Positions 1 to 22,350 of a stretch of 64,000 nt of DNA are shown here, one piece after another (positions within the stretch are counted from its first letter, which is position 1; each line of letters begins with the position of its first letter). The translations under genes and the position numbers were made by a program. The notes under the pieces were generated by a model. The model was not told where the DNA came from. It did no database searches and saw nothing but the letters and a program-made list of their open reading frames with translations. Source of the DNA: a virus. The stretch lies in UHGV virus genome UHGV-0038492, one strand, 5' to 3'.

Positions 1-2
1 GT

Positions 3-2302: not shown

Positions 2303-2344
2303 ATTCCCAAATTTATTATAGTACCCACTCATTAGGGAATTAAG

Positions 2345-2644
2345 ATGATTAAGTATATTGCAATCAATGTAAACTACGAACGTAACCCACGTTTTCGTTT
2401 TGAGTTACCTGAAACCAAAGCAACCATGGAGTTTAATCGTTACCTGTTAGAACATTCAAACACCAAAATCAATCACGGTAGATACTGGCTTATCTACTAT
2501 AATGCCCGTAATGAGTTACTGAAAGCCGTCAAGAAATCAGGTCAGTCAGAACTGTTAGCGAAACTGATGGCGTTTGATGGCGATCCTTTAGCAATAGGAA
2601 TTATGTTAGACCTTGCTATCAATAAAGACGAAATAGCATGGTGA
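2345..2644 (+). CDS. hypothetical protein
   Basis: 99-aa ORF with ATG and weak GGGA RBS; followed by bidirectional terminator. Confidence 0.55.
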   Translation: MIKYIAINVNYERNPRFRFELPETKATMEFNRYLLEHSNTKINHGRYWLIYYNARNELLKAVKKSGQSELLAKLMAFDGDPLAIGIMLDLAINKDEIAW

Positions 2645-2657
2645 AAAAAAGAAAGCT

Positions 2658-2704
2658 ACTCCGACCCCAGAAGGGTCGGAGTAAGCTCGAATTATTTTTT
2701 TTTT
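2658..2704. terminator. bidirectional terminator between convergent genes
   Basis: CTCCGACCC-CAGAA-GGGTCGGAG hairpin flanked by an A-run upstream and T11 downstream. Confidence 0.7.
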
Positions 2705-2709
2705 GCTAT

Positions 2710-5379
2710 TTAGAGAGTTTCATCGGTGTTGTCGTCTGTACCGGTATCCGTCTCGTCCGTGCCCTCAGTTGAAACTTCTTCTTCCGTTGTCGTATCGGTT
2801 TCCGTCGTTTCATCATCGGTCATGTCCAAGTCTTCATCACCGCCCAGATCGTCGCCACCAAAGTCGTTGCCCCCGCCGAAGTTATTGGCGTCTTCAGGAT
2901 TCAAATCAGCCGCTTTTGCTATCGTCTGAACTTTACCGGTCGCACGTTTTGCTAACTGAATCAGCGTCTTCGATGCTGCTGCAATTTCATCAGAAATCAT
3001 CTTGACGTTTTCACCACGTTTATCTTCATCGTAGATCAAATCAAACAGATCGGTTTCGATGCCCTGATTACGTAGCCAGTTGCGCGCGTAGAAGGTCTTA
3101 ACCATCGTCTTGAGGTCATCAGGTGACATTTCAATACCTTCGTTCTGAAGCATATTAGCAATGTCGTCCGTGACCACCAGATCTGCAAGTTTCTCGATAA
3201 ATTCATAGCGTTTATCGAAGAGATCAGCTTGAGATGCTGTTGCAGAAGTATCAGGCGGCGGCAAGGTGACCTTCATACCGTTTATAAACTTCGCCATATA
3301 CTCTGACGTTTGTTTTGTCATCTCTTCGCTAGTTACATTCGGATTCTGCTCACGGATATACTCAACGATAATACGGATGAGTTCTGCTTGCAGTTTCGGT
3401 GAAGCTTGCAGACTGTTTGTAACGTAGCGCGTAAGCGGGGTTGAGAGGATTTCCTGTTTCTTCACAATCTGTTGAGTAACCAACAGCGATTTAGAATAAA
3501 TCTGAGAAGCAAACTCCAGGTTCTCCGGGGTAAGTACAAGGTCAGGATCAACACACGCGATGTGACATGTACGGCGTAACAGGTTCTCGTCAATTTGTTG
3601 ATCAGGAACTTTATACTCCGGCGTGGTATCAGACACAGATACTTTGTGGCTGGCGTAGTAATCGTTACCCGTTACGTTAAAGGCAATCCCCGCGTTAGCC
3701 CCCATTGACCAGGCGTCGTTGATATCACCCCACATCGGCAGGCGACGATTGTAGGAATTAAGGATATCTGATTTAACTTGGTCAACAGTTTTTTGACCGT
3801 TTGCATCATCTGGTGACAGCTCAATGTCGTACTGCATGTGACGTGCCGAGTTCAGTACAGATGAGTTCATCGTTGCGAACAGCAGCGCCATCCTGACAGT
3901 AGAGATAATAAAGGAGCGCTCAGTAATAGAAACCCCGATACCGTCTTCGTTAAAGTCCGTTGCAAAATAGCACAAGTTATTAACCGGAATGTAAACCACC
4001 TGAGTATGACGTTTTGCGAGATGCCGCGCTAACAGAATACGACCGAATGTTTCGGTAATATTCATGCTGATTTCTGCGCCACCTAGTGCCTGACTTAATG
4101 CGCGTGCAAATTCGTTTTCAGCGATTTCACCACAACGTGTACTTAAACGGTTGGCGATTTCCGGGGTAATACGAGAAGTGTTCCCTAAGCCCAGATTAGA
4201 ACGGTTAATGATGCTGTCCGTCATCCCGTCGTTATTCAGGTAGTTCATAAAGTTCGCATCGCCGTACAGCGAGGAGCGAGCATTGATGAAGTTACCCATG
4301 TCATCTACGATGGTCAGATAACCGATAGGGTTACGAACGTCATCGCCAATTACCAGTGGCAGCGTTGACTCTGCGGGCAGTAAACGTTCGATGTATTCGA
4401 TTTTGTTATTCTCATCCATTGAGATAATAGGAATATCACCGTACGTTTGTGTTTTCGGTGTTGACTTATACGCCTCGTTTAAATCACCCAAGTTAATGAA
4501 CCCTTTTTCAGCAGCGTCACGCTGACGGTCATCGAAAGATTGATTAGGGTCGAACGGACTGCCACCGTTTGGTGTAGACGGCTTTTCATATGCGGCTTGC
4601 TCTAATTGCCCGTACAATCCCGTACGTGCGTTCTCATGCGCAATACGACGATACAAATCCGGCAGCATGGTAATGCGCGGGTTATCGGTAATCGTGATTT
4701 CCATCTGGAATTTATCCGAGAACATCGAATCGTGCTTACCGAAATCGATTTTCAATGTTTGTGGACCAGTAACGGCTCCGCGTAAACGGTTGAGAATTGA
4801 TTCTACACCAACTCGCTGCCCTTCTTTCGGCGCATTAATAGGCCCGAGGATACCAAGCTGTTGTTCGAAGAACGCCGTTTGAGAACGACGAATAGATTCA
4901 GTAGCGACCTTTGTATTCAGACCGAATAATTGGTCGAAGCCGGTATCCGAGATTATCATCACTGGACTTGCGCCTTTGGTTTTTAACGCATCGTAAATCC
5001 ACTGATATAATTTCTTAGGTAGCTGACGAATGTTATCGTGATAATCACGGGTCGGTGTCAGTAGCGCGTTACGCAGATCAATGGGGATGTCCGCGAAGTT
5101 GTCGTAAATCAACGTCGTGTTGATTAAGTCTTTTGTTGATAGCAGGCTCGAAGTTGCAATAGTAACGATTGTTTCGAGTTCAGGTAACGCATCAAAGATA
5201 CGTTCCGCATTTTTGATAGTACGAATACGTGAACTCGCAATTGCCGTGAGTTCTTGACGTGTTGGCGTAGAACCACCCTCGCTACGCGTACCGCGTTGTT
5301 GCTGAGGTGCTGGGCCCGTAGTTTTACGAAGAATTGCAGCTACGGCGGGGTCGCCCGTTAATTTACTAATATCGTCCAT
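2710..5379 (-). CDS. large hypothetical protein with strongly acidic C-terminal tail (possible virion protein)
   Basis: 889-aa ORF; last ~55 residues almost entirely D/E/T/G; no P-loop seen; a virion/portal-like role is speculation only. Confidence 0.8.
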   Translation of the reverse strand: MDDISKLTGDPAVAAILRKTTGPAPQQQRGTRSEGGSTPTRQELTAIASSRIRTIKNAERIFDALPELETIVTIATSSLLSTKDLINTTLIYDNFADIPIDLRNALLTPTRDYHDNIRQLPKKLYQWIYDALKTKGASPVMIISDTGFDQLFGLNTKVATESIRRSQTAFFEQQLGILGPINAPKEGQRVGVESILNRLRGAVTGPQTLKIDFGKHDSMFSDKFQMEITITDNPRITMLPDLYRRIAHENARTGLYGQLEQAAYEKPSTPNGGSPFDPNQSFDDRQRDAAEKGFINLGDLNEAYKSTPKTQTYGDIPIISMDENNKIEYIERLLPAESTLPLVIGDDVRNPIGYLTIVDDMGNFINARSSLYGDANFMNYLNNDGMTDSIINRSNLGLGNTSRITPEIANRLSTRCGEIAENEFARALSQALGGAEISMNITETFGRILLARHLAKRHTQVVYIPVNNLCYFATDFNEDGIGVSITERSFIISTVRMALLFATMNSSVLNSARHMQYDIELSPDDANGQKTVDQVKSDILNSYNRRLPMWGDINDAWSMGANAGIAFNVTGNDYYASHKVSVSDTTPEYKVPDQQIDENLLRRTCHIACVDPDLVLTPENLEFASQIYSKSLLVTQQIVKKQEILSTPLTRYVTNSLQASPKLQAELIRIIVEYIREQNPNVTSEEMTKQTSEYMAKFINGMKVTLPPPDTSATASQADLFDKRYEFIEKLADLVVTDDIANMLQNEGIEMSPDDLKTMVKTFYARNWLRNQGIETDLFDLIYDEDKRGENVKMISDEIAAASKTLIQLAKRATGKVQTIAKAADLNPEDANNFGGGNDFGGDDLGGDEDLDMTDDETTETDTTTEEEVSTEGTDETDTGTDDNTDETL

Positions 5380-5390
5380 TGGGGTCTCCG

Positions 5391-7574
5391 ATGCAGAGAT
5401 TTAACATATTTCGTGAACAGAACATCGCGTTGGCGAAATCACTGATTATTAAATCAGAATCAATCGCACAACAGATGAATCTGGCAATAACCGAGAACGG
5501 CGGTTTCGTTTCCGATAACCGAAGTACGTGGCGATACTACCTGCATTTAGCAGGACAACGTCACGAATGGGATAAGCCCATTTACATAACGTCGCTCGAC
5601 ACGCAAGAGCAGATAGAATTAACGACAGCCAACCTGTCCCGTCATAAAAAGACCTCAAACGTATTTCGTTCGAACGGCGAGTACATTGAGGAGCTGATCA
5701 GAACGTATCCTGACTACGCGATTTATATCCGGGGTGTGTTTAATCCGGTGGATATAAACTACGCCATCCGTGTGGCTGACTGCTCTATCCTCTATTACGA
5801 CAGTTCATTAGTGGAGTCGCAAGAGACGTCGCTGATGTCGAGATTGGAAGACAGAATAAGGGCAGCTCACGTTCGCTATATGTCAGAAGGGTGGAAAGTT
5901 CACAACGATGCGTTCGTGTTAGCATTCTACTGTATTCTGTATCCGCAGCTACCCGGCATTATCGGCTATATCCGTTCTTCTTTACAGCATACCACGGAAA
6001 CACATTCTTTTTACGTGACCGAGTTCTTAGCATCACACCAAGAACTTCACGAGTTTATGCCTTATCTGACCCAGAAACAGAAATTCATTCTGTATCGGAA
6101 TATTCGTTACTGGGAGCGTAATTCAGGGAAAGAGGAGATTTTCGACTGGCAGATTGATGCGCTACTGACAGGTTGGGGGATGCCTGCGGTCGGGTATAAT
6201 GTTGCGCAGCAGATACACGAACCGAAGGATGATGACGATTCCACGTTAACACCGTTACCGATTGGTTATCAGCAATCGCTTAACTATACGGAAAAGGATT
6301 CTGGTCGAGACCTTGACATTGTAACGACGACGGACATTATCCAGAAGGAAGTCGCGTTAGCGTACAATAACCCGGCGTACGAACCGGAGTATCAAGAAGA
6401 CTTAGATACCCGTTTAAGTTTAACGCAATACCCTAACCTAAAAACCAAACTCATTGAAGTTACAGCAGTCGATCCAGAAGCGATTGAGCGCTTCGAGTAT
6501 CTGCATAACCTCTTTAACGAATGGGTACATCTCGTCGCGAAAGGGAAATACAACATTTACCACGAGATTCTTAACCCAACAAACGGGGATACCTTAAAGC
6601 TTAGCTCAAAAGAGTTATTGGCGCTGTTCTTGTACGCGGCGTATAAAGGGTATTCTGACGTTGCGTTAGAAGAGATTCCTGTGTTCAACGTATTCGGGGT
6701 GTTAATCAAACGCTGGGTTCCATTCGATGAAATGGAACAACATTTAATCCCGAGCTGGGAAAACCGTTTCGATGCGTTGATTAACTATTATACCGATACG
6801 CACACAGAAGTCGTCGGAACGATTCTTAGTGCTGATGAACTTTACGACACGGTTAATGAAATCATTACCCAGAAACGCCGTCGTTGGCGTTATAGCCAAA
6901 ACCGTCGGAAGATTCCTGACCGCGCTGCGGGCTTGATGCTGTTTAACTACCATTATCGTGATTATCGTTGCGATTTAAAACTGAACTACCGTAACTACGA
7001 TGAGTTCTTTAAAACGTTTGGGTTAGACTATACGTTGGTTTCGGCGGAGACGTGGCAAGACATTGCTATTGATGCGTTTAACACCGCAACTAACCTGGAA
7101 ACCCGCGCAACGATTTCACAGTCTGAGATTCAGCGTGCGATGGTACGACTGATGACGAAGCTGTCATCCTACACCGTACATTTTGCTGCACGAATGGGGT
7201 CAGATTCTTACGACGTTATGGACCCGCTCTGTCCTATCTTAGGGGATATCCCTATGAGTGGGGAGGGGACAATTACAATTATTGAACCCCTCTTAGGCGT
7301 ACAGCAAGTTACGCGTCACCAGTATATGTCCACCGACACTGTGTTACCGGCAGCGCCTGTTATTAAAGAACTGTCGATGCCACAGCACATCAAACTCAGG
7401 ATGAACATTTACATGGGTATCCGAGTGAAAGTAACACAGCAGGTTGTGGTGGATATTAACGAGCCGACTACCGGGGTTGTTAAAGTGAAATCTTCGCTTG
7501 ACGATTGGACGTTAAACGAACAGGTGAAAATTAACGATCTGGACGGCTTCACGCTTGACCAGCTACCTAAGTGA
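5391..7574 (+). CDS. hypothetical protein
   Basis: 727-aa ORF from ATG 5391 (track start 5379 is a TTG); diverges from the 889-aa gene with no intergenic space; no Walker motif seen. Confidence 0.75.
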   Translation: MQRFNIFREQNIALAKSLIIKSESIAQQMNLAITENGGFVSDNRSTWRYYLHLAGQRHEWDKPIYITSLDTQEQIELTTANLSRHKKTSNVFRSNGEYIEELIRTYPDYAIYIRGVFNPVDINYAIRVADCSILYYDSSLVESQETSLMSRLEDRIRAAHVRYMSEGWKVHNDAFVLAFYCILYPQLPGIIGYIRSSLQHTTETHSFYVTEFLASHQELHEFMPYLTQKQKFILYRNIRYWERNSGKEEIFDWQIDALLTGWGMPAVGYNVAQQIHEPKDDDDSTLTPLPIGYQQSLNYTEKDSGRDLDIVTTTDIIQKEVALAYNNPAYEPEYQEDLDTRLSLTQYPNLKTKLIEVTAVDPEAIERFEYLHNLFNEWVHLVAKGKYNIYHEILNPTNGDTLKLSSKELLALFLYAAYKGYSDVALEEIPVFNVFGVLIKRWVPFDEMEQHLIPSWENRFDALINYYTDTHTEVVGTILSADELYDTVNEIITQKRRRWRYSQNRRKIPDRAAGLMLFNYHYRDYRCDLKLNYRNYDEFFKTFGLDYTLVSAETWQDIAIDAFNTATNLETRATISQSEIQRAMVRLMTKLSSYTVHFAARMGSDSYDVMDPLCPILGDIPMSGEGTITIIEPLLGVQQVTRHQYMSTDTVLPAAPVIKELSMPQHIKLRMNIYMGIRVKVTQQVVVDINEPTTGVVKVKSSLDDWTLNEQVKINDLDGFTLDQLPK

Positions 7575-7581
7575 GAAAACC

Positions 7582-8109
7582 ATGGCATATCGCGTCGACT
7601 TAACGAAAACTCCGAAACAAATTCTGGTAGATCGTATTAACTACGTTTTCGGGGTATCCTATACCACTGATAACATCGATTTTAACGATAAAGGTGTGCA
7701 ACCACTGACGAAAGACGAAGCCCGTCGTTACGGACTGGAATCGAAAGTGGCCGCTGACTTTAAAAACGGTGTTACAGGGAACCAGGAATTCATCTTAACC
7801 CGTGTTGACCTGGCAACGTTCTTAGCTGACGAACCGGTTACGGTACCGAAAGGCGAAGTAACCAGCAGCCAAGAACTGGCAGACTATATCGTTGCCCAGA
7901 CCGGTATTGATTTGACCCAAGACGACATTATGATCGAGCCTATCAGTGAGGAACTCGATTCTTATGATGTTCGCTTAGTCCCGAATCACTTATCTTTTAA
8001 AGGAACGATTCCGGTCGTATTTACTGACCCCACACCACGCACGTTGGCGTCTCTCGTGACGAAACTTGCGCTGGACGGGTTCCGCCCTGGAGAATTAATC
8101 AATGTCTAA
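7582..8109 (+). CDS. hypothetical protein, distant member of the fibre-associated small-protein family
   Basis: ATG at 7582; contains the motif ELADYIVAQTGIDLTQDDI resembling the xNLxPxDL motif of ORFs at 27860, 38024, 47326 and 48188. Confidence 0.6.
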   Translation: MAYRVDLTKTPKQILVDRINYVFGVSYTTDNIDFNDKGVQPLTKDEARRYGLESKVAADFKNGVTGNQEFILTRVDLATFLADEPVTVPKGEVTSSQELADYIVAQTGIDLTQDDIMIEPISEELDSYDVRLVPNHLSFKGTIPVVFTDPTPRTLASLVTKLALDGFRPGELINV

Positions 8110-8989
8110 TGTCAAAGTTTACGACGGTAAACTCTCGACGGTAACACTTAATGCGATGCGTCTGGCTACCGCATTAATTACCGGTGCCGATGTGCAATAC
8201 CCACAGAAGTCCACACTGAATGAGTTTTATAAACTCATGCAAACCCCAGTGCCGGACGGTAAAGCACGTCCCCATTTGCAGTACATGGCGATTGGTAACC
8301 GTGGCCATATGGTCGACACATCAGACGTTGTTGCTGATGTTGTTCCTGTAGCTAAAGAACCTATCGCGTCCGGGATGTTTTCACGCGTTCCGTTTGTCCT
8401 GCGTACTAAAGACAACGATTTGTCTGATGAACAGCGTAAGAACTACGCTTTCCGTACTCTGGAAACCATCAACAAACGTGAGTATTGGGCGTACTACTTA
8501 AAACGCATTGACATGCGTGCAGTAAAAACTACCGACTACGACATTAAGCGTGAGAACGGTGTTGAAACTGTAGAAGACTTTGTCTATACGGATACTGAAC
8601 TGAACCCGGTACCGAAAGTGTTGCCGGACTACGATTACGATGATGACGGTACCGTTGCAATTCCTGACGGCCGTTATGTGGAATCAGGTGCAGACCTGGT
8701 TATTCCGTGGACGGACTTTGACGTTCAGGAGTACATGAACGTGACCAGCATTATGCGCGGTAGCCCTCGTAGTTCGATTATCTCTGAACTGGCACTGTGC
8801 TCTGGCTTAGACCAGGTAACGTCCGGTGACTCTGCTACAGGTTCGAAGTTCAGCTACACTGAAGCTATCGGTGTACAAGCCCTGTATTACATTTCGATGT
8901 TTACTAACCTGGCGCAGACGAACGATAAACTGTCACTGACAATCCGTATCGGTCAACCTGCACCGTTCTTCTTAGGGACAGCGAATTAA
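8102..8989 (+). CDS. hypothetical protein
   Basis: 295-aa ORF, GGAGAA RBS, start overlaps upstream stop. Confidence 0.7.
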   Translation: MSNVKVYDGKLSTVTLNAMRLATALITGADVQYPQKSTLNEFYKLMQTPVPDGKARPHLQYMAIGNRGHMVDTSDVVADVVPVAKEPIASGMFSRVPFVLRTKDNDLSDEQRKNYAFRTLETINKREYWAYYLKRIDMRAVKTTDYDIKRENGVETVEDFVYTDTELNPVPKVLPDYDYDDDGTVAIPDGRYVESGADLVIPWTDFDVQEYMNVTSIMRGSPRSSIISELALCSGLDQVTSGDSATGSKFSYTEAIGVQALYYISMFTNLAQTNDKLSLTIRIGQPAPFFLGTAN

Positions 8990-9633
8990 TGTTGATTCCT
9001 GAGCCGAGACTTCCCGATAAAATGGTCAGGATCGCGGCGATAGACCCCGGTACGAGCCATCTCGGGATGGCGGTGCTGGATTGGGAATATGGCAGCGACC
9101 AAGCCGAAGTGGTGTGGGCTGATACCATGCACGTATTAGACCCAACACATCCAAGTGCGTTTGCAGAGTGTGTCGGTAAACGCGACGATCGCTTAGTAAA
9201 ACTCGAAGCGTGCTACCGTGAGTTTCTTCGGATTGCGCGTCCGACGTTTGTTGCAACAGAAACGCCGTTTATGCGGCGGGCAAAACTCTCCGCGTATGAG
9301 TCTGGTGTAGAGTTACAGCTGATGTTAAGACGGGCGTTATGGGACGTGTTTCCAGAGAAAGTGTTACACGGGTTCAATCCGATTATTGTAAAATCATTCG
9401 TCGGTGTGGAAGCGAAAGGAACGGACAAAACAGATATGTTTCGTGCCGTAACGAAGTTGTATCGCGACCACGCGTTGTTTGACATTACAACGTTGGATGA
9501 GCACAGTATCGATGCCGTGGCGGTGGGGAATATCTTTGTCAGGGTAAACCTGTTAAACTTGAATAGTCTCCTACCGCCAAAACAAAAGTCTGCTAAGACA
9601 GCAAAACGGCGGAGAAGACGTCGGAGGAAATAG
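8989..9633 (+). CDS. RuvC/RNase-H-fold protein (putative Holliday-junction resolvase) with poly-Arg C-terminal tail
   Basis: N-terminal RIAAIDPGTSHLGMAVLD resembles the first catalytic strand of RuvC-family resolvases; C-terminus KRRRRRRRK. Confidence 0.5.
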   Translation: MLIPEPRLPDKMVRIAAIDPGTSHLGMAVLDWEYGSDQAEVVWADTMHVLDPTHPSAFAECVGKRDDRLVKLEACYREFLRIARPTFVATETPFMRRAKLSAYESGVELQLMLRRALWDVFPEKVLHGFNPIIVKSFVGVEAKGTDKTDMFRAVTKLYRDHALFDITTLDEHSIDAVAVGNIFVRVNLLNLNSLLPPKQKSAKTAKRRRRRRRK

Positions 9634-9635
9634 CG

Positions 9636-10214
9636 ATGTCGCAACCAACACAAGACGTGTCAGCCGCAATTCTTGACATTCTTATCCAAGCAGGGAACAG
9701 AAAGTTAAGTAAAGAGCAGTCCGAAGAACTGTCTAAGATTCTCAAAGACAACTTCGGTGATGATGTCTCTGTAGACGTAACGCGGTCGGGTACAAAGATT
9801 CTGTCGGAGCTACGCCCAACGCTTCTTGAGAACATTGGAAAGATGGCGGAAAACTTTCAGCAGCAAGCCACAAATGCTGTAGAGAGTTTAGGTGACGAAG
9901 TAAGCAAAGAAACGATGTTGACACTGTGGCCGAAACTTGCCGGTGCACAGAAGTTCATTATTGTTCTGCTTGCACTCGCCACTGTGGTCGTGACAGGCTT
10001 CTTAGCGTACGACACGCATCAGAACTATCCAACAGACAGTATGGAAGTGTTGTTTGTATCCTTACTTCCGCTGTTCGGACTGGTAGTATTTGCAACGTGG
10101 CCGATTAAAACGTTGGCTTACAAGTCGTTGGAGATTGCTACCAAAGTTGTCGAGAAGAAACTTGAGAAATCAGGTCAGGTCGTCGCGAAGACGGAAACAA
10201 AGACAACGAAATAA
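9636..10214 (+). CDS. membrane protein (two predicted TM helices)
   Basis: GGAGG RBS; hydrophobic segments FIIVLLALATVVVTGFLAY and LFVSLLPLFGLVVFATW; followed by terminator. Confidence 0.65.
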   Translation: MSQPTQDVSAAILDILIQAGNRKLSKEQSEELSKILKDNFGDDVSVDVTRSGTKILSELRPTLLENIGKMAENFQQQATNAVESLGDEVSKETMLTLWPKLAGAQKFIIVLLALATVVVTGFLAYDTHQNYPTDSMEVLFVSLLPLFGLVVFATWPIKTLAYKSLEIATKVVEKKLEKSGQVVAKTETKTTK

Positions 10215-10220
10215 AACCAA

Positions 10221-10255
10221 CCTCTACCTTCGGGTAGAGGTTTTCTTCTTTTTAT
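10221..10255 (+). terminator. intrinsic terminator (UUCG tetraloop)
   Basis: CCTCTACC-TTCG-GGTAGAGG followed by T-rich tract. Confidence 0.75.
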
Positions 10256-10302
10256 TTTACAATTTTTGATCATACTGTGAGACTTGAACAAGGAGACTTA
10301 TC

Positions 10303-10956
10303 ATGGAACCACTACGTTTAATGACCAGAACGCTACTGATTCCTATCTGGGAATTGAAGCTTGCCCCATTGTCTGCCTCTAATGGGGAGGTCATTGATTT
10401 TATTAAAGACGAAGAATTTGTGTTGACGGCTTTCCAGGAGACGCTGCATCGTTATTATAATGCAGTGCCTTTATCTGGCGGATTAGATTGCCCTGGTGTA
10501 GAAGGGAGTACGTCTGCGTTAATCGCAGAGTATTTAGAACAGAAAGGAATCGGGGTTGGGAAAGGCCGGGTTTATGTGGACGCCGATAAACTGAGGAGTT
10601 ACCAGATTGAGCTGACGTTTCAGATAAGAAAATTACTTACCCGCTACGGTCTTTTCTCGATTAACTGTAAGGTTGATGACGTACGGATGTTAGACCACGG
10701 TTTTACCACTGTCCTCAAAACCTGTCGCGGTAAAAGATTCGTACAGTTTGCGTGGTGGGTACCAGTATTGCGTGGTGAGAGAAAAACGGTGGAGGGGTTG
10801 TACGGCTGGGCGCTATGGAGCGAAGTTCCAGTAAATAAACTCGATGCAGTTATTCCAAAGCACCGAAACGTTCCGCTTAGCAGTTTATTTACTTCCGGCG
10901 AGAACACTACGTGGGCTGAATTCGTTAATAACGTTATGTCAATTGGGGAACAATAA
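10303..10956 (+). CDS. hypothetical protein
   Basis: 217-aa ORF, AAGGAG RBS. Confidence 0.65.
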   Translation: MEPLRLMTRTLLIPIWELKLAPLSASNGEVIDFIKDEEFVLTAFQETLHRYYNAVPLSGGLDCPGVEGSTSALIAEYLEQKGIGVGKGRVYVDADKLRSYQIELTFQIRKLLTRYGLFSINCKVDDVRMLDHGFTTVLKTCRGKRFVQFAWWVPVLRGERKTVEGLYGWALWSEVPVNKLDAVIPKHRNVPLSSLFTSGENTTWAEFVNNVMSIGEQ

Positions 10957-11432: not shown

Positions 11433-11448
11433 CCGTTGAGAGTCTAAA

Positions 11449-11925
11449 ATGATACGTGTCGAATATGAGACGCGGTGCTTAGAAGACAATCGAGCAAAAG
11501 CATTACGTTGTGTTGAAATCGTCCCCGAGCACGAACTGGATATCCAAGCTGGTAAGGTTCGGGGCGTTCCGGTTAAGATCGTACAACATAGCCATTGTTC
11601 GCAATATAAAGAGAAAGCTGTCCCAGTAGTACGTTCCAGTAAACGAGAAGACTTTTCAGAACTCCGTAAGTGTTTTCAACGACACTACCGTCGGAGTAAA
11701 TGGAAAGTGTTGGTATTAATGTTAGTCGACGATTTCATTAAAGACCTGGTTTGGGAAGAAGTGCTTAAAGAGCGTGGTTTTCAACCCAAACCGTTCTCGT
11801 ATCACTGGGAACGTTTCAAAAAGAAATACCACGAGTCATTGCGTTGGTCTCCGAACACCCGGAATATGATGCCACGTTTGGAATCAATGCCTTGGCTTCG
11901 TGTTTATCTCGATGAGGTAAACTGA
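11449..11925 (+). CDS. hypothetical protein
   Basis: 158-aa ORF with ATG start. Confidence 0.6.
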   Translation: MIRVEYETRCLEDNRAKALRCVEIVPEHELDIQAGKVRGVPVKIVQHSHCSQYKEKAVPVVRSSKREDFSELRKCFQRHYRRSKWKVLVLMLVDDFIKDLVWEEVLKERGFQPKPFSYHWERFKKKYHESLRWSPNTRNMMPRLESMPWLRVYLDEVN

Positions 11926-12314
11926 TGAAACGTTTTATTACTCCATTTCTAATGTTACTTTCGTTTTCTGTATTAGCTGATTTTAAACCTTACGATATCA
12001 GTCGTTACGAACCCGCTGTCCCTGGCGATAAACCGGTTGTGTTTAAAGCAGACGACCAACCCGTCACTGCGGTTCAAAACGATGAGTTTGCAGTGGTGAA
12101 TTACGGCAAAACGGACTTATGTCCTGCGGGTGGATTTTATCTGGTGAACATCAAACGTCGGACTTACCAGTTTGTTGATCCGGGTAGCTGCTCTGCAATG
12201 GTTAAGGTGACGTTAGAAACCGTACCTTACACGAATAAAAACATTAATATACAACGTTTAACCTTTTATGCGGGTGATGAAATCACAGCACGTTATCCGT
12301 TATACGGGTATTAG
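11925..12314 (+). CDS. secreted protein with N-terminal signal peptide
   Basis: MKRFITPFLMLLSFSVLADF has the n/h/c organisation of a Sec signal peptide; ATG overlaps upstream stop. Confidence 0.6.
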   Translation: MKRFITPFLMLLSFSVLADFKPYDISRYEPAVPGDKPVVFKADDQPVTAVQNDEFAVVNYGKTDLCPAGGFYLVNIKRRTYQFVDPGSCSAMVKVTLETVPYTNKNINIQRLTFYAGDEITARYPLYGY

Positions 12315-12337
12315 TGATTAGCCCCCACGGAGTTCGT

Positions 12338-12976
12338 ATGTCTTTTGTAATTGATTTCGACGTTGGCCACAGACAGAACTTACTTAATCTCGTTAGTTAT
12401 TGTAACAGTGACAGTGTACGGAAAAAGCTTTCGGCTGAAAAGGTAGACGTTACGCTCGTCGGTGCCCCAACACCGGAAGGACGCTATAAGGTAAAGTTAA
12501 CGAACCGTAACGACATAAACGATGCGGTACTGATTACCTACACAAAGCTTCAACTGAACGACTTCCTTGAGATTCCTGCCAAGTATCTGGATTGGTTTGA
12601 TTTCGAAAACGGTCAACCTAAGAACTACGATACGTGGGCAGCTTCCGCTAAAGTCGCTGTAGAGAAAATGTGCCAAGACCGAGGTATGGTGATATCTCGC
12701 GCTTGGGACACCGGTTCACAGTGTCACATTGAGTTTGACGAGTCTATCGAACGGTATGTGGTTGTCTACGAGTGCGACTCTTTTATTTATAGTGCGAGAA
12801 ACCGATTCATCTTACCTCTACACTTAGGGCAGGTGATCAACGACACGACATTAGACGGTCTTGATTACAATAACGAACTGAACAAGAAACCATTGGCGGA
12901 TTTGGACGGTGAGTTAGAAGTGTGGATGGGTCAGGCGTTGGTTGAGACAGTCGTCTTAAGCGGCCTGGAAGTATAA
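12338..12976 (+). CDS. hypothetical protein
   Basis: GGAG RBS 6 nt upstream of ATG at 12338 (track start 12314 is a GTG without RBS); terminator downstream. Confidence 0.65.
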   Translation: MSFVIDFDVGHRQNLLNLVSYCNSDSVRKKLSAEKVDVTLVGAPTPEGRYKVKLTNRNDINDAVLITYTKLQLNDFLEIPAKYLDWFDFENGQPKNYDTWAASAKVAVEKMCQDRGMVISRAWDTGSQCHIEFDESIERYVVVYECDSFIYSARNRFILPLHLGQVINDTTLDGLDYNNELNKKPLADLDGELEVWMGQALVETVVLSGLEV

Positions 12977-12986
12977 TAGTAACGGC

Positions 12987-13030
12987 GGGTAGAGAGAGCT
13001 TTCGGGCTCTCTCTACTTTTCTTTTTTTTC
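12987..13030 (+). terminator. intrinsic terminator
   Basis: GGGTAGAGAGAGC...GCTCTCTCTAC hairpin then T9. Confidence 0.75.
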
Positions 13031-13059
13031 CATTATCGACGGTCTTTATGGAGGTGACC

Positions 13060-13614
13060 ATGAAAGACTATAGAATTGCAATCATCGGGTCTCGAGAAAC
13101 ACCGGAAGACGTTATGCAGGAAATGTTAGACACGTTACGGGAAGGGTTTCGAATCTTACGAAAGAAAGGCTACACGATTACCACCCGTTCTGGCGGGTGT
13201 TATAAAGGCCCAGACCAGCTTCAGTTTATGATAGCACGTACCGAGGACGTTAAGAGCGTTTGTTATCTGCCGGATGAAAAGAAAATGTGGTTAGGGAAAA
13301 TACACCCTAAGGTAGAGTTTCGTTATATCCCACAAGACGTTCAGTACCGAGCGATAGTTGCTTCACTTCACCCAAATCCAGATAAGCTCTCACCGATTGC
13401 CTGGGCGCTACACGGCCGTAATCTGAATATCATCGCAGGTGACTGCTTAGACGAACCGGTAGACGCAGTCTATTACTTTAGCGACCACGACAAACACGGA
13501 AACGCAAAAGGTGGTACTGCGATGGGTGTAAAATACGCGAAGTCAATCGACGTTCCTTGTTACTACCATACCGTCGATCGGGATAAGTGGTTGGAAAGTC
13601 TTCGTTTATTATGA
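13060..13614 (+). CDS. SLOG/DprA-like Rossmann-fold protein (tentative)
   Basis: GGAGG RBS 5 nt upstream of ATG at 13060; IAIIGSR followed by RSGGCYKG resembles the glycine-rich strand-loop of DprA/LOG-type Rossmann domains. Confidence 0.45.
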   Translation: MKDYRIAIIGSRETPEDVMQEMLDTLREGFRILRKKGYTITTRSGGCYKGPDQLQFMIARTEDVKSVCYLPDEKKMWLGKIHPKVEFRYIPQDVQYRAIVASLHPNPDKLSPIAWALHGRNLNIIAGDCLDEPVDAVYYFSDHDKHGNAKGGTAMGVKYAKSIDVPCYYHTVDRDKWLESLRLL

Positions 13615-13737
13615 ACTTGACTTTAACCGCGTAGTTGAGTTCAGCGATTCACCGTGCGATGGGAACAGAAGTTACTGTGTATCCGTTAGCAGGGTGAACT
13701 GGGTAAAAGTAAGATCAAAGCAAACGAGTAAATTATC

Positions 13738-14871
13738 ATGTCAACGTTAGATAGCGACTTAGAAGTGCTTTGTGACGATTACGACCGACTCGTAGCGTTA
13801 GAATCCATTGGAGTAAAAGACAATTATCCGGCTATCGTTGCTATCCGTAAACGTTGGCTTTTGGATGATGTGGTTGTTGCGTCAGAGTCTGCGGCCATGA
13901 TGCACCGTGCACAGTTTTTGTCAGACACGGAACCTGATAAAGGGATAGGCAAAGCGGCGGCACGACTCACCGGACGTGCGGTTCGTGGCGTAAGTCGGGT
14001 AGCAGGACGTGCTGCCAGTGCAGGTGCAAAAGCATCGGCGAACTTCGCAGGTAAACATTCCAAACAACTTGCTTTACGTTTTGTGGATTTTGCTGAGGCT
14101 GCGGGTAAAGAAGTCATTAAGGAATTAAAAGAAGCGACGTCTAAAGCGACGACCTTAGAGCGCAAACTGCAAAAGTTAAATGCACGTCTAAATTTAATCG
14201 GTGACAAAGACACCTTAAAACCGGTTGACTGCGACACGGGAAGCTGGACGACCAAAGTTTGTTTAGAAGACAAACCTAACGTAAAAGCGTGTATTGAGTT
14301 CAGTAAGAACCTGAACGCAATGGATGCGATGGTCAACGAGTATACCGTTAAAACGCGCACCATTATCGGTAAGAGCAAGAAAGTTACTGAGAGTGGCTTG
14401 GAGAAAGTAGGTCGCTCAACGAACTGGGCGATTAAACGTAGTGCAGGGCTGTTCGGTATTATCGATCCGTTTAAAACGGTGAAAGCGTATCCGTGGCCAG
14501 GTAACGTGGTGGTCGTTGAACACGACAACGGTAAGATTGAGTGGGCGATTGCCCGTGATGGTGATTTTGGCCACTCAATCAAATCTCTGAACTTACACGA
14601 AATCGGTTCGGCTCTCGAAGCCGTTGAAAAAATTATCCGAGCTTTACGTCAGCGTGGTACGAAGCGACGTAGCGTTGGTTATACCGGTATTTACGATGAA
14701 GTTCAGCGAATGAAAAAAGAGCTGAAGTCGTTAGACGGTCGTGAGTTACGCGATGCTACCGTTCGGTATAAGAACGCACTGCGTTTAGAAGATGCGTTTA
14801 CTACCTCGTTAGTGCGTGTTGCGGAAGGCTTACTGGAATGGTGCAGGTTGTCGCTGATTGAGGTTAAATAA
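13738..14871 (+). CDS. hypothetical protein
   Basis: 377-aa ORF; Ala/Arg-rich low-complexity segment near residue 80. Confidence 0.7.
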   Translation: MSTLDSDLEVLCDDYDRLVALESIGVKDNYPAIVAIRKRWLLDDVVVASESAAMMHRAQFLSDTEPDKGIGKAAARLTGRAVRGVSRVAGRAASAGAKASANFAGKHSKQLALRFVDFAEAAGKEVIKELKEATSKATTLERKLQKLNARLNLIGDKDTLKPVDCDTGSWTTKVCLEDKPNVKACIEFSKNLNAMDAMVNEYTVKTRTIIGKSKKVTESGLEKVGRSTNWAIKRSAGLFGIIDPFKTVKAYPWPGNVVVVEHDNGKIEWAIARDGDFGHSIKSLNLHEIGSALEAVEKIIRALRQRGTKRRSVGYTGIYDEVQRMKKELKSLDGRELRDATVRYKNALRLEDAFTTSLVRVAEGLLEWCRLSLIEVK

Positions 14872-15338
14872 TGCGTATTACTATTATTCTCAAACCCGAC
14901 AGTAAATACGGAAAGTTATACGGCGACCAGGTACTCAAACTGCACAACATGTTGTTCGCAGAAGAGAAAGTGCGTATTAGTCAGTTAACTGGACGTGACA
15001 CGTTCAACCCCATCGAACGTTTAGAAGAGATTTGGCCTCAAGACTATCTCTGTGCGTGTGCGGTGGGTGACAACGAACAGCTTCTGGGATTTATGACGTT
15101 CTCATTGGGTTCTTGCTCAAAAGACACGTTTGTTTACATCGGGAATTACTATGTGATTCCTGAAGCACGTTCTCAAGGGGTAGGGCGTGCGCTTATGGAC
15201 AAAGTCCGTGAATACGGAAAGTCCAAAGGTTGTGGTTGGATGAGTCTGGATGTGTTAGACAACAACGTTAAAGCTATCTCCTTGTATGAGAAAATGGGAT
15301 TCCGTACCGAATGCAGGGAAATGATAAAGGAAATCTAA
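14871..15338 (+). CDS. GNAT-family N-acetyltransferase
   Basis: YVIPEARSQGVGRALMDKVREYGKSKG matches the GNAT motif A (Q/RxxGxG/A acetyl-CoA loop); ATG overlaps upstream stop. Confidence 0.65.
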   Translation: MRITIILKPDSKYGKLYGDQVLKLHNMLFAEEKVRISQLTGRDTFNPIERLEEIWPQDYLCACAVGDNEQLLGFMTFSLGSCSKDTFVYIGNYYVIPEARSQGVGRALMDKVREYGKSKGCGWMSLDVLDNNVKAISLYEKMGFRTECREMIKEI

Positions 15339-15339
15339 A

Positions 15340-15972
15340 ATGGCTGCAAGATTCGTACCGTTTCATGACGGGTCTAGATATACTTTTGGTGTAGAGCGTT
15401 ACGCTGTGGGTTTTCGTCCTGGTTGGAGAGTGGTACGAATCGATAAAGCGTGTTGGTGTTTACCGACCGGCATTTTTGATTACTTTACGCCTGAAGCTTT
15501 AACGCGGTTTGTTTCTCTGGGTTCTCCCACGCAACGTGCTGCGTGGGAAAAGAATATTCGTTGCCGTTATTTGGGTAAAACACGAAACGCGACGGTACGT
15601 GGTGTTTATCACGTAGGGAGTCGTTGGTTACACGTTGAGCCAACACATCCCCGTTGTGCCGTCACACCCTTTAACGGTGAATATCGCGGTCAGGTGTACA
15701 CGGGGTTACATTTTGCGTTCCCGGATAACCCTGACCTTAATTATTTTCTGGCTACCCCGAAAGACGTTACATTAGCCACGTTCTATAAATACCTTTTGTT
15801 CTATCCTGCCTACGTCGTTGCAGAATACGAACACAAAGCATTTCCTCTGCCTTACGGTAGAGACAGGAGATTAGCAGGATGTTCTATCGAGAACTTCAGC
15901 AATACACCGACGCTCTCCGAAAAGCGACCATTGATGCTCACAACAACCTCAGAGATGTCGTTAGCGTTATAG
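15340..15972 (+). CDS. hypothetical protein
   Basis: 210-aa ORF; 3' end overlaps next ORF by 94 nt in another frame. Confidence 0.6.
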   Translation: MAARFVPFHDGSRYTFGVERYAVGFRPGWRVVRIDKACWCLPTGIFDYFTPEALTRFVSLGSPTQRAAWEKNIRCRYLGKTRNATVRGVYHVGSRWLHVEPTHPRCAVTPFNGEYRGQVYTGLHFAFPDNPDLNYFLATPKDVTLATFYKYLLFYPAYVVAEYEHKAFPLPYGRDRRLAGCSIENFSNTPTLSEKRPLMLTTTSEMSLAL

Positions 15973-16250
15973 AACAGTGTTCGGATGTATTGTATGCGGA
16001 AACGATTGAAACGCCAACCCACGACGGTGTGAAATCGCTCCAGCTACACGTTTGTAGTAAACACGGCAGTCTGTCGTTAAACTTCCGTGTAGGTTTAGAT
16101 TATTACATGGTTCGTAAGAGCTATTTAAGTTGTGACGGTGACCTTTATCCGGTTGTCTGGAACAACGATTATTCTAAGTTTGTTTATCCACTTGAAGAAC
16201 ACCGACGCACGGTTTATGAATTTGTGAAAGCTGTTCTCGAGGGGTTCTAA
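15879..16250 (+). CDS. hypothetical protein
   Basis: 123-aa ORF with GGAG-type RBS; overlaps upstream ORF by 94 nt. Confidence 0.5.
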   Translation: MFYRELQQYTDALRKATIDAHNNLRDVVSVIEQCSDVLYAETIETPTHDGVKSLQLHVCSKHGSLSLNFRVGLDYYMVRKSYLSCDGDLYPVVWNNDYSKFVYPLEEHRRTVYEFVKAVLEGF

Positions 16251-16263
16251 AGAGGGTATTGTG

Positions 16264-16869
16264 ATGTCAGAGATGATTCTCGACTCATTACTGCTGATTA
16301 CGGTGGCGTATATCAACAAAACCGGTAAGCTACCAAAGCGTGGGGTGACGATTGAACGGGAGGGGTTTAAGCACCGCTACCCGTTAACGAAAGTTCTCGA
16401 TTTGGCAGCGCGGTTAGCGAAGATGCGTAGACCGACGTCAGACGCAGCACCGAAGTACGTCTTAGTGGTACTCCAACGTGCGATTTCTGAAGTCCGTCGT
16501 GCGCGTCGTCGTGCCTCGTTTCGCTTTTATCCAAACTCTACGCAGCAGGTTGTGGGGGTCTATAACGAAATGGTTGTTGATTTACGTACCGAACACTGTA
16601 ACGTTACAGGACTTGCGTATAACCGCCTCAAACGCATTCTGGACGACTCAGACGCGTTTACCACACCGCAAGAAGGTCAAGCGGCTTTAGCGCTTCTACG
16701 AGGCGCTGAGCTCGTTATTGTGGACACCGCAGTACAGGCCGCAAGAATGCAGCACTATCTTGCTAAGCAAGGATTAGTTTTACTGTGTGTTCCGTCTGCA
16801 CAGGCTGCTAATCTTACCGCACCGGAAACGTCAGAAGTGTGGAGTGGTCCGATTGTTGACCATCAATAA
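16264..16869 (+). CDS. hypothetical protein
   Basis: GAGGG RBS before ATG at 16264; terminator downstream. Confidence 0.65.
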   Translation: MSEMILDSLLLITVAYINKTGKLPKRGVTIEREGFKHRYPLTKVLDLAARLAKMRRPTSDAAPKYVLVVLQRAISEVRRARRRASFRFYPNSTQQVVGVYNEMVVDLRTEHCNVTGLAYNRLKRILDDSDAFTTPQEGQAALALLRGAELVIVDTAVQAARMQHYLAKQGLVLLCVPSAQAANLTAPETSEVWSGPIVDHQ

Positions 16870-16874
16870 AACCT

Positions 16875-16911
16875 TACCCCTACCTATCGGTAGGGGCGGG
16901 TTTCTTTTTTT
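16875..16911 (+). terminator. intrinsic terminator
   Basis: CCCCTACC-TATC-GGTAGGGG then T-run. Confidence 0.75.
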
Positions 16912-17008
16912 ATCCTAAAATTTATTACAACCAATAGCTATTATGTGAACGCCGGTATGGAATAAAGAAGTATCGGTTTAAATTTTTGTGCGTAAAGGTA
17001 AAACGATA

Positions 17009-17632
17009 ATGCTTAAGACAGTGTCTATTGATGGCCCTGACTTTTCTGGGAAATCGACGTTGTGCAAAATAGTAAAAGGTATGCTGGAATCTGCGGGGTT
17101 AAAGGTCTGCATCCGTAATCACCCTACGACGGAGACCGAAGCGGGTATCCGCGCACGCAGTTTAGTCGTTCAGTCCGCAGCAAAAGCAAAAATTGCCGAA
17201 GCGATGTGCGACGATTTCCTTCACACGTTAGACCATGTTGTTGACGATTACGATGTTGTTATTTTCGACAGGTTCTGTCCCTCTACAATCGTTTACCAGG
17301 GTGTCGACGGTAAAGACGAAGTTTTCCGACGTAAGCTAACGCGTCATTTCCACGCACCAGATTTGTACGTTTGGACGGACGTGGATTACGACGGCGCAGT
17401 AGCACGCTTTAAGAAACGGGTAGAAGAACAAGGTAAGAATTGGGACGACGAGGTTCTTACCGTTAAGTATTTAAAAGACAACCAAAGTTGGGAAGCGTTA
17501 CGTGACCACTACCGCTTTGCCCACCACATCCTCACTGAAGGCGGTTGTCTGCACCATTTATTACCCGTGAAGCAAGACGACGATTACCGTTTGAAAGCGG
17601 CTGAAATCGTTGCTTGTATTTTAGAGAATTAA
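17009..17632 (+). CDS. P-loop nucleoside-monophosphate kinase (thymidylate-kinase-like)
   Basis: N-terminal IDGPDFSGKSTL matches the xDGxDGxGKST P-loop of thymidylate/dNMP kinases; start moved to ATG 17009. Confidence 0.6.
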   Translation: MLKTVSIDGPDFSGKSTLCKIVKGMLESAGLKVCIRNHPTTETEAGIRARSLVVQSAAKAKIAEAMCDDFLHTLDHVVDDYDVVIFDRFCPSTIVYQGVDGKDEVFRRKLTRHFHAPDLYVWTDVDYDGAVARFKKRVEEQGKNWDDEVLTVKYLKDNQSWEALRDHYRFAHHILTEGGCLHHLLPVKQDDDYRLKAAEIVACILEN

Positions 17633-17640
17633 TCACATAC

Positions 17641-17674
17641 CCCTACCTTCGGGTAGGGGATTATTTAATTTTTT
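17641..17674 (+). terminator. intrinsic terminator (UUCG tetraloop)
   Basis: CCCTACC-TTCG-GGTAGGG then T-rich tract; immediately upstream of promoter-like motif. Confidence 0.65.
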
Positions 17675-17715
17675 CTCAGATATATATTACCTTAGTGAGA
17701 TTACACAGTAATCTC
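17671..17715 (+). promoter_or_regulatory. promoter-like motif TTTTCTCAGATATATATTACCTTAG followed by hairpin (copy 1)
   Basis: Near-identical 20-nt AT-rich element recurs at 39209 and 43638; hairpin GAGATTA-CACAG-TAATCTC follows; sits just after a terminator and ~55 nt before the HTH gene. Confidence 0.55.
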
Positions 17716-17750
17716 TTTACGACTTGTTCTACAGATTAGGATTAAATATC

Positions 17751-18110
17751 ATGGCTTACAATCACAACTCTATTGTTTTAGCAAAACGTAAATTCGGTCT
17801 TCATCTTTCTTACGTGATTCGTCATTTGACAGCGAAAGACATTACACAGCGTGAACTTGCCCAGCTTGCGAAAGTTTCACAGCCGGTTATTTCATCTATT
17901 AAGAACGATCATAGCGAACGCCTGAGTCTACCAATAATGATGAAGGTTGCTGATGCAATTCGTCTGAAATATCAGATTACGTTTAATTCTGTTAAAGGGC
18001 GTTGCTCAGTAACGGTTCACGTAGAGTCTGCGTTGGACTACGTTGCAAATACGTCCCTTAAACGTACAGCGAAAAATATTCGTTTTGTTACTAACAGCGC
18101 AACACACTAA
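17751..18110 (+). CDS. helix-turn-helix DNA-binding protein (XRE/Cro-like)
   Basis: ITQRELAQLAKVSQPVISSIKN is a typical HTH; gene lies about 55 nt downstream of a promoter-like motif; ATG at 17751. Confidence 0.55.
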   Translation: MAYNHNSIVLAKRKFGLHLSYVIRHLTAKDITQRELAQLAKVSQPVISSIKNDHSERLSLPIMMKVADAIRLKYQITFNSVKGRCSVTVHVESALDYVANTSLKRTAKNIRFVTNSATH

Positions 18111-18131
18111 TCAACCTAAAGGAGTATTATC

Positions 18132-18815
18132 ATGGCACCGAAAACTAAGAAAACTGAAGTTAAAGAAACTGTAGAAAAGCCGACTGATACTAAGGAAGCG
18201 GAAGTTAAGCAGACTGGGCCTAGCAAGAAGCTTGCGCTTATGCCACCCACCACAGAAATACACGGGGATAAAATCTTAAGTTACACTCCGCGCGCGAGTT
18301 TAACGATGGATATTTACCATTACCCGGTATTCGACCTGTACACGCTTGTCTGTCGACTCGACGATGAGATACTGGCAGTCGTTCCAGGTATCCACAAAGA
18401 AAAACTGCTTACGGGTTCAGTCATTAGCGAGATTTTCCTGCGCTTGATGTTTAAATCAGACGATAAGATGATCAGCCAGATTGCTAGTAAATTGACTGAC
18501 TTCTTTGTTGAGGCTTCAACGTGGTTAGGCTTTCACCCAACGGCTTATTTCATTTTCGACACCAAAATGTTGTATGCTGAAATGGGCGATAGCGTTAAGT
18601 ATCCTATCTTGCTTAATGAAGAAGTCGTTCCGTTTTCCCTTACCAGTCCTAACAAACATCTTCGCTTTCATCCTGCGTTAGAAAACCTGATTGAATACAA
18701 TCGGTTGGAAAAATATTACGCTTATCATCGCATGTTCTTTGAACTTCTGCGTGATAAATTAAGAGGCAAAGTTCCAGATTCTAGTGCAGCATTCACTAGT
18801 TCTAAGCTTTGGTAG
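18132..18815 (+). CDS. hypothetical protein with basic Lys/Glu-rich N-terminus
   Basis: AAAGGAG RBS; 227-aa ORF; terminator downstream. Confidence 0.65.
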   Translation: MAPKTKKTEVKETVEKPTDTKEAEVKQTGPSKKLALMPPTTEIHGDKILSYTPRASLTMDIYHYPVFDLYTLVCRLDDEILAVVPGIHKEKLLTGSVISEIFLRLMFKSDDKMISQIASKLTDFFVEASTWLGFHPTAYFIFDTKMLYAEMGDSVKYPILLNEEVVPFSLTSPNKHLRFHPALENLIEYNRLEKYYAYHRMFFELLRDKLRGKVPDSSAAFTSSKLW

Positions 18816-18828
18816 TTTGTAACAAACA

Positions 18829-18856
18829 GGGAGCTTCGGCTCCCTTTTTCTTTTTA
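18829..18856 (+). terminator. intrinsic terminator (UUCG tetraloop)
   Basis: GGGAGC-TTCG-GCTCCC then T-run. Confidence 0.7.
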
Positions 18857-18901
18857 CAACTTTTTCTTTTGTTGTGAGGAAAGCCGATAAGGAGTATTAA
18901 A

Positions 18902-22256: not shown

Positions 22257-22294
22257 CCCCTCTCTCCGTTTGGAGAGAGGGTGTATTTATTTTT
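22257..22294 (+). terminator. intrinsic terminator
   Basis: CCCCTCTCTCCG-TTT-GGAGAGAGGG then T-rich tract; near-identical to the hairpin at 23304. Confidence 0.7.
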
Positions 22295-22350
22295 ACGCGT
22301 ATAGCCGTAGTTATGCACAAGTAAACAAAATTAATTGAGGAAACAATCTG

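Follow-up and report, generated by a model that had tools for sequence, protein, structure and literature searches.

Origin of the question

What is the short T-rich element that recurs between the genes of the virus genome UHGV-0038492, and by which enzyme might it be read? The stretch of this genome analyzed here is 64,000 nucleotides (nt) long and is referred to below as the window. An earlier note had described in it an intergenic block, TTTTACAA(T/C)TTTTT, placed just downstream of terminators and possibly representing a second class of phage promoters. The recurring element is real when redefined as a motif of two parts held at a fixed distance, (T/A)TTTTAC-R-N14-T-R-T-G, the consensus of 30 aligned sites; the observation is in this sense partly confirmed, and its interpretation as a second promoter class is supported. 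The fixed spacing, the orientation, the position between a terminator and a gene, the conservation at orthologous positions and a geometry shared with P78M, a mapped middle promoter of phage phiKZ, all agree with such a predicted class. The sites are probably promoters for the phage's own multisubunit RNA polymerase, and as such they would constitute the counterpart of the middle class already known in phiKZ and 201phi2-1 and not a new kind of promoter.

The sites of the window and the terminators that precede them are the following (PWM, position weight matrix score):

10219-10252, plus strand: terminator-like hairpin AACCTCTACC-TTCG-GGTAGAGGTT (10219-10242) with a T-rich tail that enters the promoter box (terminator scan and sequence)
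10253-10281, plus strand: promoter 1 (predicted), upstream of gene 10303-10956; box TTTTAC 10255-10260, initiator TGTG 10276-10279, predicted start G10279, leader of 24 nt; PWM 21.9, the top score in the window
16877-16917, plus strand: terminator-like hairpin CCCCTACC-TATC-GGTAGGGG and T-run before promoter 2 (terminator scan and sequence)
16918-16949, plus strand: promoter 2 (predicted, from register and conservation), upstream of thymidylate kinase (Tmk); box TTATTAC 16922-16928, initiator TGTG 16944-16947, predicted start G16947
18828-18849, plus strand: terminator-like hairpin AGGGAGC-TTCG-GCTCCCT (18828-18845) and T-run before promoter 3 (terminator scan and sequence)
18850-18878, plus strand: promoter 3 (predicted), upstream of the acyltransferase-like gene 18902-19888, with a DNA methyltransferase behind it; box TTTTTAC 18851-18857, initiator TGTG 18873-18876, predicted start G18876, leader of 26 nt; PWM 20.8
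22258-22318, plus strand: terminator hairpin (22258-22281), then promoter 4 (predicted), upstream of the open reading frame (ORF) 22351-22668; box TTTTTAC 22290-22296, initiator TATG 22312-22315, predicted start G22315, leader of 36 nt; PWM 21.4
24362-24392, plus strand: promoter 5, a weak candidate, upstream of gene 24407-24802; box TTTTTAC 24364-24370, initiator AATG 24386-24389 (A for T at -3), candidate start G24389; PWM 16.4

Each of the four strong sites, with predicted starts at G10279, G16947, G18876 and G22315, comes directly behind a terminator and leaves 24-62 nt to the next gene, the longest leader being that of Tmk, for which ATG 17009 is likely the true start codon, judging from an alignment. 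The two main sites of the earlier note were found much as described. CTTTTTACAACTTTTTCTT occupies exactly positions 18850-18868, and TATTTTACAATTTTTGAT extends from 10253 (not 10252) to 10270; both directly follow the terminator-like hairpins detected at 10219-10242 and 18828-18845 in the terminator scan, their next start codons are about 45 nt away where about 40 nt had been estimated, and both are followed by TGTGAG, 13 nt after ACAA. A third sequence, AAATTTATTACAACC, begins at 16918 instead of 16917 and, having been taken for a weak relative, proved to be a full member with the register TTAC-N15-TGTG. Two further sites had been missed, the strong one at 22290-22315 and the weak one at 24364-24389. 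By contrast, AAATTTATTATAGTACC, reported at 2306 and in fact starting at 2309, does not belong to the class, as it reads TTAT for TTAC and has no TRTG at the right distance.

The phage and its relatives

The proteins of the window match families of phiKZ-like jumbo phages. A virion protein of 889 amino acids (aa) is about 75% identical to those of the Erwinia phages Asesino, phiEaH2 and Stratton and of SPN3US-like phages of Salmonella and E. coli, and the gene order is collinear with Asesino and with the E. coli phage Lh1B (genus Seoulvirus). Two IMG/VR contigs share 97-98% DNA identity with the window; in the phage collection no near-identical DNA was found by megablast with a 3-kb query, and the kinship emerged from searches at the protein level. 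Positions 1-317 of the window encode the C-terminal 104 aa of a homologue of Asesino gp94 (positions 3-317 being 82% identical to the gp94 C-terminus), and gp94 is in turn homologous to phiKZ GP123 (E = 5e-20), the beta-like subunit of the non-virion RNA polymerase (nvRNAP) that binds the TATG initiator. The protein identity and synteny with Asesino and SPN3US-like phages, together with this GP123 homologue, therefore identify the window phage at the sequence level as a chimallivirus (Chimalliviridae) whose near relatives include Erwinia phage Asesino and Salmonella phage SPN3US, and as one that encodes multisubunit RNA polymerases of its own. In phiKZ the genome is transcribed by two phage-encoded multisubunit polymerases, and the host enzyme is not used.

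Two parts at a single spacing

The scans covered the window, the Asesino genome, 35 kb of Lh1B and 140 kb of phiKZ, with gene boundaries taken from the Asesino annotation and from a curated list of window genes. Taken as one block, the element shows no enrichment: the 8-mer TTTTACAA alone was found 5 times in the window against 6.06 expected, and the 14-mer TTTTACAAYTTTTT is likewise not enriched there, for which reason the single-block description was dropped. The sites at 10253, 16918 and 18850 share the exact register TTAC-15 nt-TGTG and therefore called for a two-part description, of which the TGTGAG of the earlier note is the second part. The conserved unit is TTTAC-R-N14-TRTG, not the block with its trailing T-run, and in this form the enrichment is strong. 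The pattern TTAC-N15-T[AG]TG occurs 5 times in the intergenic DNA of the window (3.0 kb; 0.08 expected) and 13 times in that of Asesino (11.8 kb; 0.32 expected), counts that none of 2000 dinucleotide-preserving shuffles reached in either case. A scan of all spacings from 0 to 30 between TTAC and TRTG gave a sole peak at N15, and antisense matches numbered 0 in the window and 1 in Asesino.

The same distance is obtained when only the dinucleotide TG is followed. With intergenic regions oriented by their downstream gene, an offset of exactly 17 nt from the C of TTTAC to the start of TG is observed in 6/16 cases for the window and in 14/32 cases across the intergenic DNA of the whole Asesino genome, whereas in coding DNA TG is found at 3-9% for every distance, with no peak. 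Start-codon artefacts in these counts amounted to one case in the window and two in Asesino and were excluded afterwards; some TTAC-N17-TG matches were rejected in this way, their TG being part of a start codon preceded by the ribosome-site context TTACCTAAAGGAG. The tetranucleotide GTGA was also tried as an anchor and set aside, since TAC-N16-GTGA gives only a modest peak in Asesino and TG or TRTG performs better.

Positions that played no part in the selection of sites are conserved as well. Among the 30 TTAC-N17-TG sites aligned from the window, Asesino and Lh1B, and counting the G of the initiator as +1, T is present at -3 in 25, a purine at -2 in 26 (G being as common as A) and a purine at -18 in 28, and the five positions upstream of TTAC are rich in T and A. 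A PWM trained solely on the Asesino and Lh1B sites and applied to both strands of the window ranked 10279, 22315, 18876 and 24389 as the top four matches, all of them intergenic and on the sense strand; these are the 4 matches that score above 16, compared with about 0.2 in shuffled windows. About 13-18 predicted sites per genome are counted for the window phage and its relatives from Erwinia, Salmonella and E. coli.

A chance resemblance in AT-rich and T-rich intergenic DNA would be compatible with the handful of sites and with the unenriched 8-mer and 14-mer in the window. It is effectively refuted by the single spacing peak, the conservation of unselected positions and the shuffles in two genomes, to which the orientation bias and the orthologous positions described below may be added, and we give it hardly any credence. 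The two-part layout also recalls bacterial sigma-70 promoters, whose upstream hexamer TTGACA is matched by TTTACA at 5/6 positions, and a TG is found upstream of the would-be -10 hexamer position. Nevertheless, at spacers of 16-18 nt the "-10" hexamers would read GAGACT, GAACGC, GAGGAA and GCACAA, so that no -10 hexamer is found at an allowed spacing; the downstream element overlaps the predicted start, and the box reads TTTACG as frequently as TTTACA in the 30 aligned sites. A sigma-70 consensus scan yielded 21 promoters (shuffle mean 23.1), none on any site, which bears out the remark in the earlier note that the spacing does not fit this type of promoter. Moreover, phiKZ infection is rifampicin-resistant and independent of the host polymerase. 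We thus consider a host sigma-70 promoter with TTTACA as its -35 element very improbable. A reading of TGTGA as a CRP half-site was also rejected because no matching second half-site is present.

Conservation at orthologous positions

The four strong sites are kept at orthologous positions in Asesino and Lh1B although the intergenic DNA has widely diverged, and the proteins of the phages that share them are only 23-75% identical to those of the window. At these sites the box and the initiator are retained while the spacers have changed. Promoter 1 corresponds to AATTACAA-N13-TGTGAT in Asesino and to TATTACGT-N13-TGTGTA in Lh1B, upstream of a protein that is merely 23% identical. Promoter 3 is represented by TTTTTACAA-N13-TGTGAAA in Asesino and by TTTTTACGC-N13-TGTGACA in Lh1B and the relative L015, and it is present in L017 as well; promoter 4 appears as TTTAC-N15-TATGTGAA in Asesino (upstream of gp126) and in Lh1B (upstream of 26101). 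For Tmk, whose upstream regions were compared as register-anchored listings, TAC-N15-TGTGA is kept with differing spacers in six lineages, namely the window, Lh1B, L014, L015, L016 and L017. The weak promoter 5 has no terminator in front, and its box is absent from the orthologous intergenic regions of Asesino and Lh1B.

A rearrangement was observed at the Tmk locus of three other relatives (L002, L011 and L013), in which an extra ORF of 204 aa and unknown function is inserted exactly between the promoter box and Tmk (window 16929-16988 compared with L002 17429-18154). The insert carries its own hairpin after the ORF and brings its own TGTG, located at N16 after the box and hence one base further away.

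As to the genes involved, the window sites are followed by thymidylate kinase, a DNA methyltransferase block and small proteins of unknown function. None of the approximately 15 sites of Asesino precedes a gene annotated as virion structural, and several precede genes of nucleotide or DNA metabolism (Tmk, a methyltransferase, and blocks containing UvsX and ThyA). The kind of downstream genes and the lack of annotated structural genes after the Asesino sites suggest a middle timing of expression.

Relation to the middle and late promoters of phiKZ

The middle promoters of phiKZ, exemplified by P78M and P62M, carry the motif AAanTTACc, with TTAC/TACT centered near -22 to -24; Wicke et al. describe the element as TACT centered 22 nt upstream, with A-rich sequence before it. 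This motif is conserved in 201phi2-1. The late promoters of phiKZ, on the other hand, consist only of T(-3)ATG(+1) and have no conserved upstream box. When read in the phiKZ genome, P78M is composed of AAAATTACC followed by TATATG, that is, TTAC-N17-TG with the G at +1, which is the geometry of the window sites. If transcription in the window starts at the G of TRTG, as predicted, TTAC spans positions -22 to -19, identical to P78M. The likeness to the phiKZ middle class extends to a TTAC box whose C is about 19-21 nt before the start (predicted for the window), a host-independent programme in a phage of the same family, a frequent position upstream of non-structural genes and conservation between genera. 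With the late promoters the window sites share the form and, with the start as predicted, the position of the initiator (T at -3, purine at -2, T at -1 and G at +1), and the window encodes a homologue of GP123, which was seen by cryo-electron microscopy of phiKZ nvRNAP on a late promoter to bind TATG on the non-template strand. Within that structure, contacts of the sigma-like subunit GP68 with the DNA backbone fall at -22/-23 and -18/-19, and the TTAC box would lie where a subunit of this type contacts the DNA. The window class differs from the late promoters in the presence of TTTAC-R at -23 to -18, in the non-structural nature of the downstream genes and in its acceptance of A or G at -2, as opposed to the lack of an upstream box, the structural and lysis genes and the required A at -2 of late promoters.

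Several points weigh against the assignment to the middle class. The first 140 kb of phiKZ show no N15 peak for TTAC-Nx-TRTG, and P78M is the only fit there; the equivalence is therefore limited to the position of the box and to P78M, loosely also to P62M, and does not extend to the whole phiKZ class, so that a rigid link between box and initiator characterizes the Asesino/SPN3US-like branch. The flank is also different: phiKZ middle boxes are preceded by A-rich sequence, while those of the window are preceded by T-rich sequence that is partly the terminator T-run, and positions -23 to -27 are T in 16-22 of the 30 aligned sites and A in 4-9. Only a few sites, for instance AAAAATTAC in Lh1B and AAAATTAC in Asesino, fit the A-rich flank of the phiKZ motif. 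In biochemical terms, every substitution in the phiKZ TATG is deleterious, whereas the window class tolerates G at -2; addition of a TTAC box to a phiKZ late promoter cut transcription 3-fold; and purified phiKZ nvRNAP is inactive on middle promoters in vitro, which makes the reading enzyme the main uncertainty. Finally, only 4-5 sites are found in the window, all of them between 10 and 25 kb, and the Tmk site reaches a PWM score of only 10.7, a low value due to the noisy spacer columns of a matrix built from 20 sequences.

Some of these facts would suit another arrangement, in which the sites are late-type nvRNAP promoters set by T-R-T-G alone and TTTAC is the conserved end of a terminator T-run or a negative element. 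Most boxes do directly continue a terminator T-run, and the TATG-type initiator is the only element that phiKZ nvRNAP was shown to require in vitro, with the lowering effect of the TTAC box pointing in the same direction. Such an explanation is, however, difficult to reconcile with the many terminators of the window and Asesino that are not followed by AC (such as those at 12987, 23305, 27800 and 48690), nor does it account for boxes with neither T-run nor hairpin in front, as in the Lh1B site just mentioned, at window position 24364 and before the Asesino genes starting at 23807, 178699 and 200496. An exact distance of 15 nt to TRTG is not expected of a terminator tail, and the downstream genes are not structural. 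We regard this arrangement as improbable, and the middle-type promoter with two parts remains the preferred reading.

It has been stated in reviews that the phiKZ middle motif is weak and that middle and late promoters of such phages cannot be predicted bioinformatically. In the Asesino/SPN3US-like branch, middle-type promoters are apparently predictable from sequence; no published promoter or transcription start site analysis for SPN3US- or Erwinia-type phages was found in the literature searched. As a separate observation, upstream of phiKZ gp50 (DNA polymerase; L009 579) the sequence TTTTATTTTTACTTACTTACATCATCTAATGTGAATG forms a T-rich TTAC box, with TAATGTGAA at the distance seen in the Tmk site of the window.

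An early-type motif with a shorter distance

A further motif with TTAC, CAGATATATATTACCTnGnGAG, is found in the window at 17677-17699, 39215-39237 and 43643-43665, with a degenerate copy at 22974-22995, and recurs across Asesino and Lh1B. Behind each copy comes a short leader hairpin starting at GTGAG, and the motif is probably the first one of the earlier note. It corresponds to the early promoters of chimalliviruses, which are read by the virion RNA polymerase (vRNAP) and carry an AT-rich TATATTAC block near -10. These promoters resemble the second class in their TTAC core, their GTGA(G/A) start region and their phage-specific, intergenic placement, often after terminators.

It could be argued that the second class is a variant of the early promoter, read by vRNAP, in which the TTAC core and GTGA start region of the early motif CAGATATATATTAC-CTnG-GTGAG serve again, with the box placed 12 bp (about one helical turn) further upstream. 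Both classes carry TTAC and (G)TGA(G/A), in the window as in the relatives, and a modified virion polymerase was considered by the phiKZ authors as a reader of middle promoters. Against this possibility, the distance from TTAC to TG adopts two sharp values, 5 nt in the early motif and 17 nt in the second class, with nothing between. The early class contains a long, near-invariant AT-rich block, GATATATATTAC, followed by the 5'-leader hairpin, and an R-G-T-G initiator that lacks T at -3; in the second class that T is present in most sites, and the class is devoid of the GATATA block and shows nothing like the AT-rich block of about 10 nt near -10 (TATATTAC). Furthermore, both elements occur in tandem as separate units upstream of Asesino gp93 and upstream of 19949 in Lh1B, and the virion polymerase of phiKZ is kept out of the phage nucleus, which houses the DNA at later stages of infection. 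An early-promoter variant thus appears unlikely, though slightly less so than a late-type promoter set by its initiator alone.

Proposed mode of action and significance

With regard to promoter activity, the exact start base, the reading polymerase and the middle timing, the following proposal draws on the sequence and on what is known of phiKZ. The preferred middle-type promoter would consist of a box, (T/A)TTTTAC-R, at about -25 to -18 and, exactly 15 nt after its C, of an initiator T(-3)R(-2)T(-1)G(+1), with transcription predicted to start at the initiator G (10279, 16947, 18876 and 22315). By analogy with phiKZ, the non-virion polymerase would act inside the phage nucleus. Its beta-like subunit, the GP123 homologue with its C-terminus encoded in window positions 1-317, may bind T-R-T-G of the non-template strand. 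The TTAC box, at the contact zone of the sigma-like subunit (-18 to -23), might be recognized either by this subunit or by a timing factor of the phage. As the promoter comes directly after a terminator, each would restart transcription for the next gene block.

A more specific proposal is made tentatively: in enterobacterial Chimalliviridae (Asesino, phiEaH2, SPN3US-like phages and the window phage) the middle promoter could possibly be a rigid composite, built from a TTAC box and a late-type TRTG at one spacing. If this were true, the same nvRNAP would read middle and late promoters through its beta-lobe pocket, and the TTAC box at -22 to -19 would serve as a timing switch, with either the sigma-like subunit or a phage factor as its reader. 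A composite of this kind would offer a sequence-predictable and genetically tractable system to establish who transcribes the middle genes of chimalliviruses.

Of the steps of gene expression in nucleus-forming jumbo phages, middle transcription is the one understood least. A sharp signal such as the one described here can be predicted from sequence, provides exact candidate start sites for annotation and a defined template for tests of the TTAC reader, and aids the annotation of operons in uncultivated relatives (e.g., IMG/VR contigs). It does not introduce a new principle, because P78M of phiKZ already has the same architecture; the exact coupling of a middle-type box with a late-type initiator is the moderately interesting feature.

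Other elements of the window

Two further matches to parts of the motif are set apart from the class:

58196-58219, minus strand: doubtful match TAATTAC-N15-TATG, whose TATG falls within the loop of a terminator hairpin (region 58160-58223); PWM 12.9, within the null range
2309-2325, plus strand: AAATTTATTATAGTACC, not a member of the class but a decayed copy of another conserved element, as judged from the sequences of relatives

The minus-strand match is probably due to chance; if it were real, transcripts starting at that point would be missing the hairpin's 5' arm and hence escape termination. The element to which the site at 2309 belongs is composed of TTATTATAG, a short palindrome (TATAGnnnnCTATA) and (A/G)TGAGG, and is located at 2300-2344, immediately ahead of the gene at 2345. 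Asesino, Lh1B and the relatives L001 and L002 all carry it, while in the window copy the palindrome has been lost by a 3-nt deletion and substitutions. The GTGAGG of this site is a ribosome-binding site (GAGG) in the relatives, 7-9 nt before the ATG. A resemblance of the site to the T7 promoter core on the reverse strand was judged to be chance.

Upstream of the virion structural gene at 47326, at about 47255-47275, TATGCTGGC and the sequence that follows are shared with Asesino (upstream of gp155); this region has no TTAC box and is a candidate late-type TATG promoter. At 13615-13737 the window has only a spacer of 123 nt where relatives with 97-98% identity (L001 13346-14230) contain an extra gene of 294 aa that appears to be a paralogue of the internal head protein next to it. 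Lastly, intergenic hairpins made of runs of 8-10 G and C (e.g., GGGGGGGGGGTAAGCTACTCCCCCC) occur at about 31885-31915, 41470-41500 and 51885-51915 and constitute unusual terminator-like structures.

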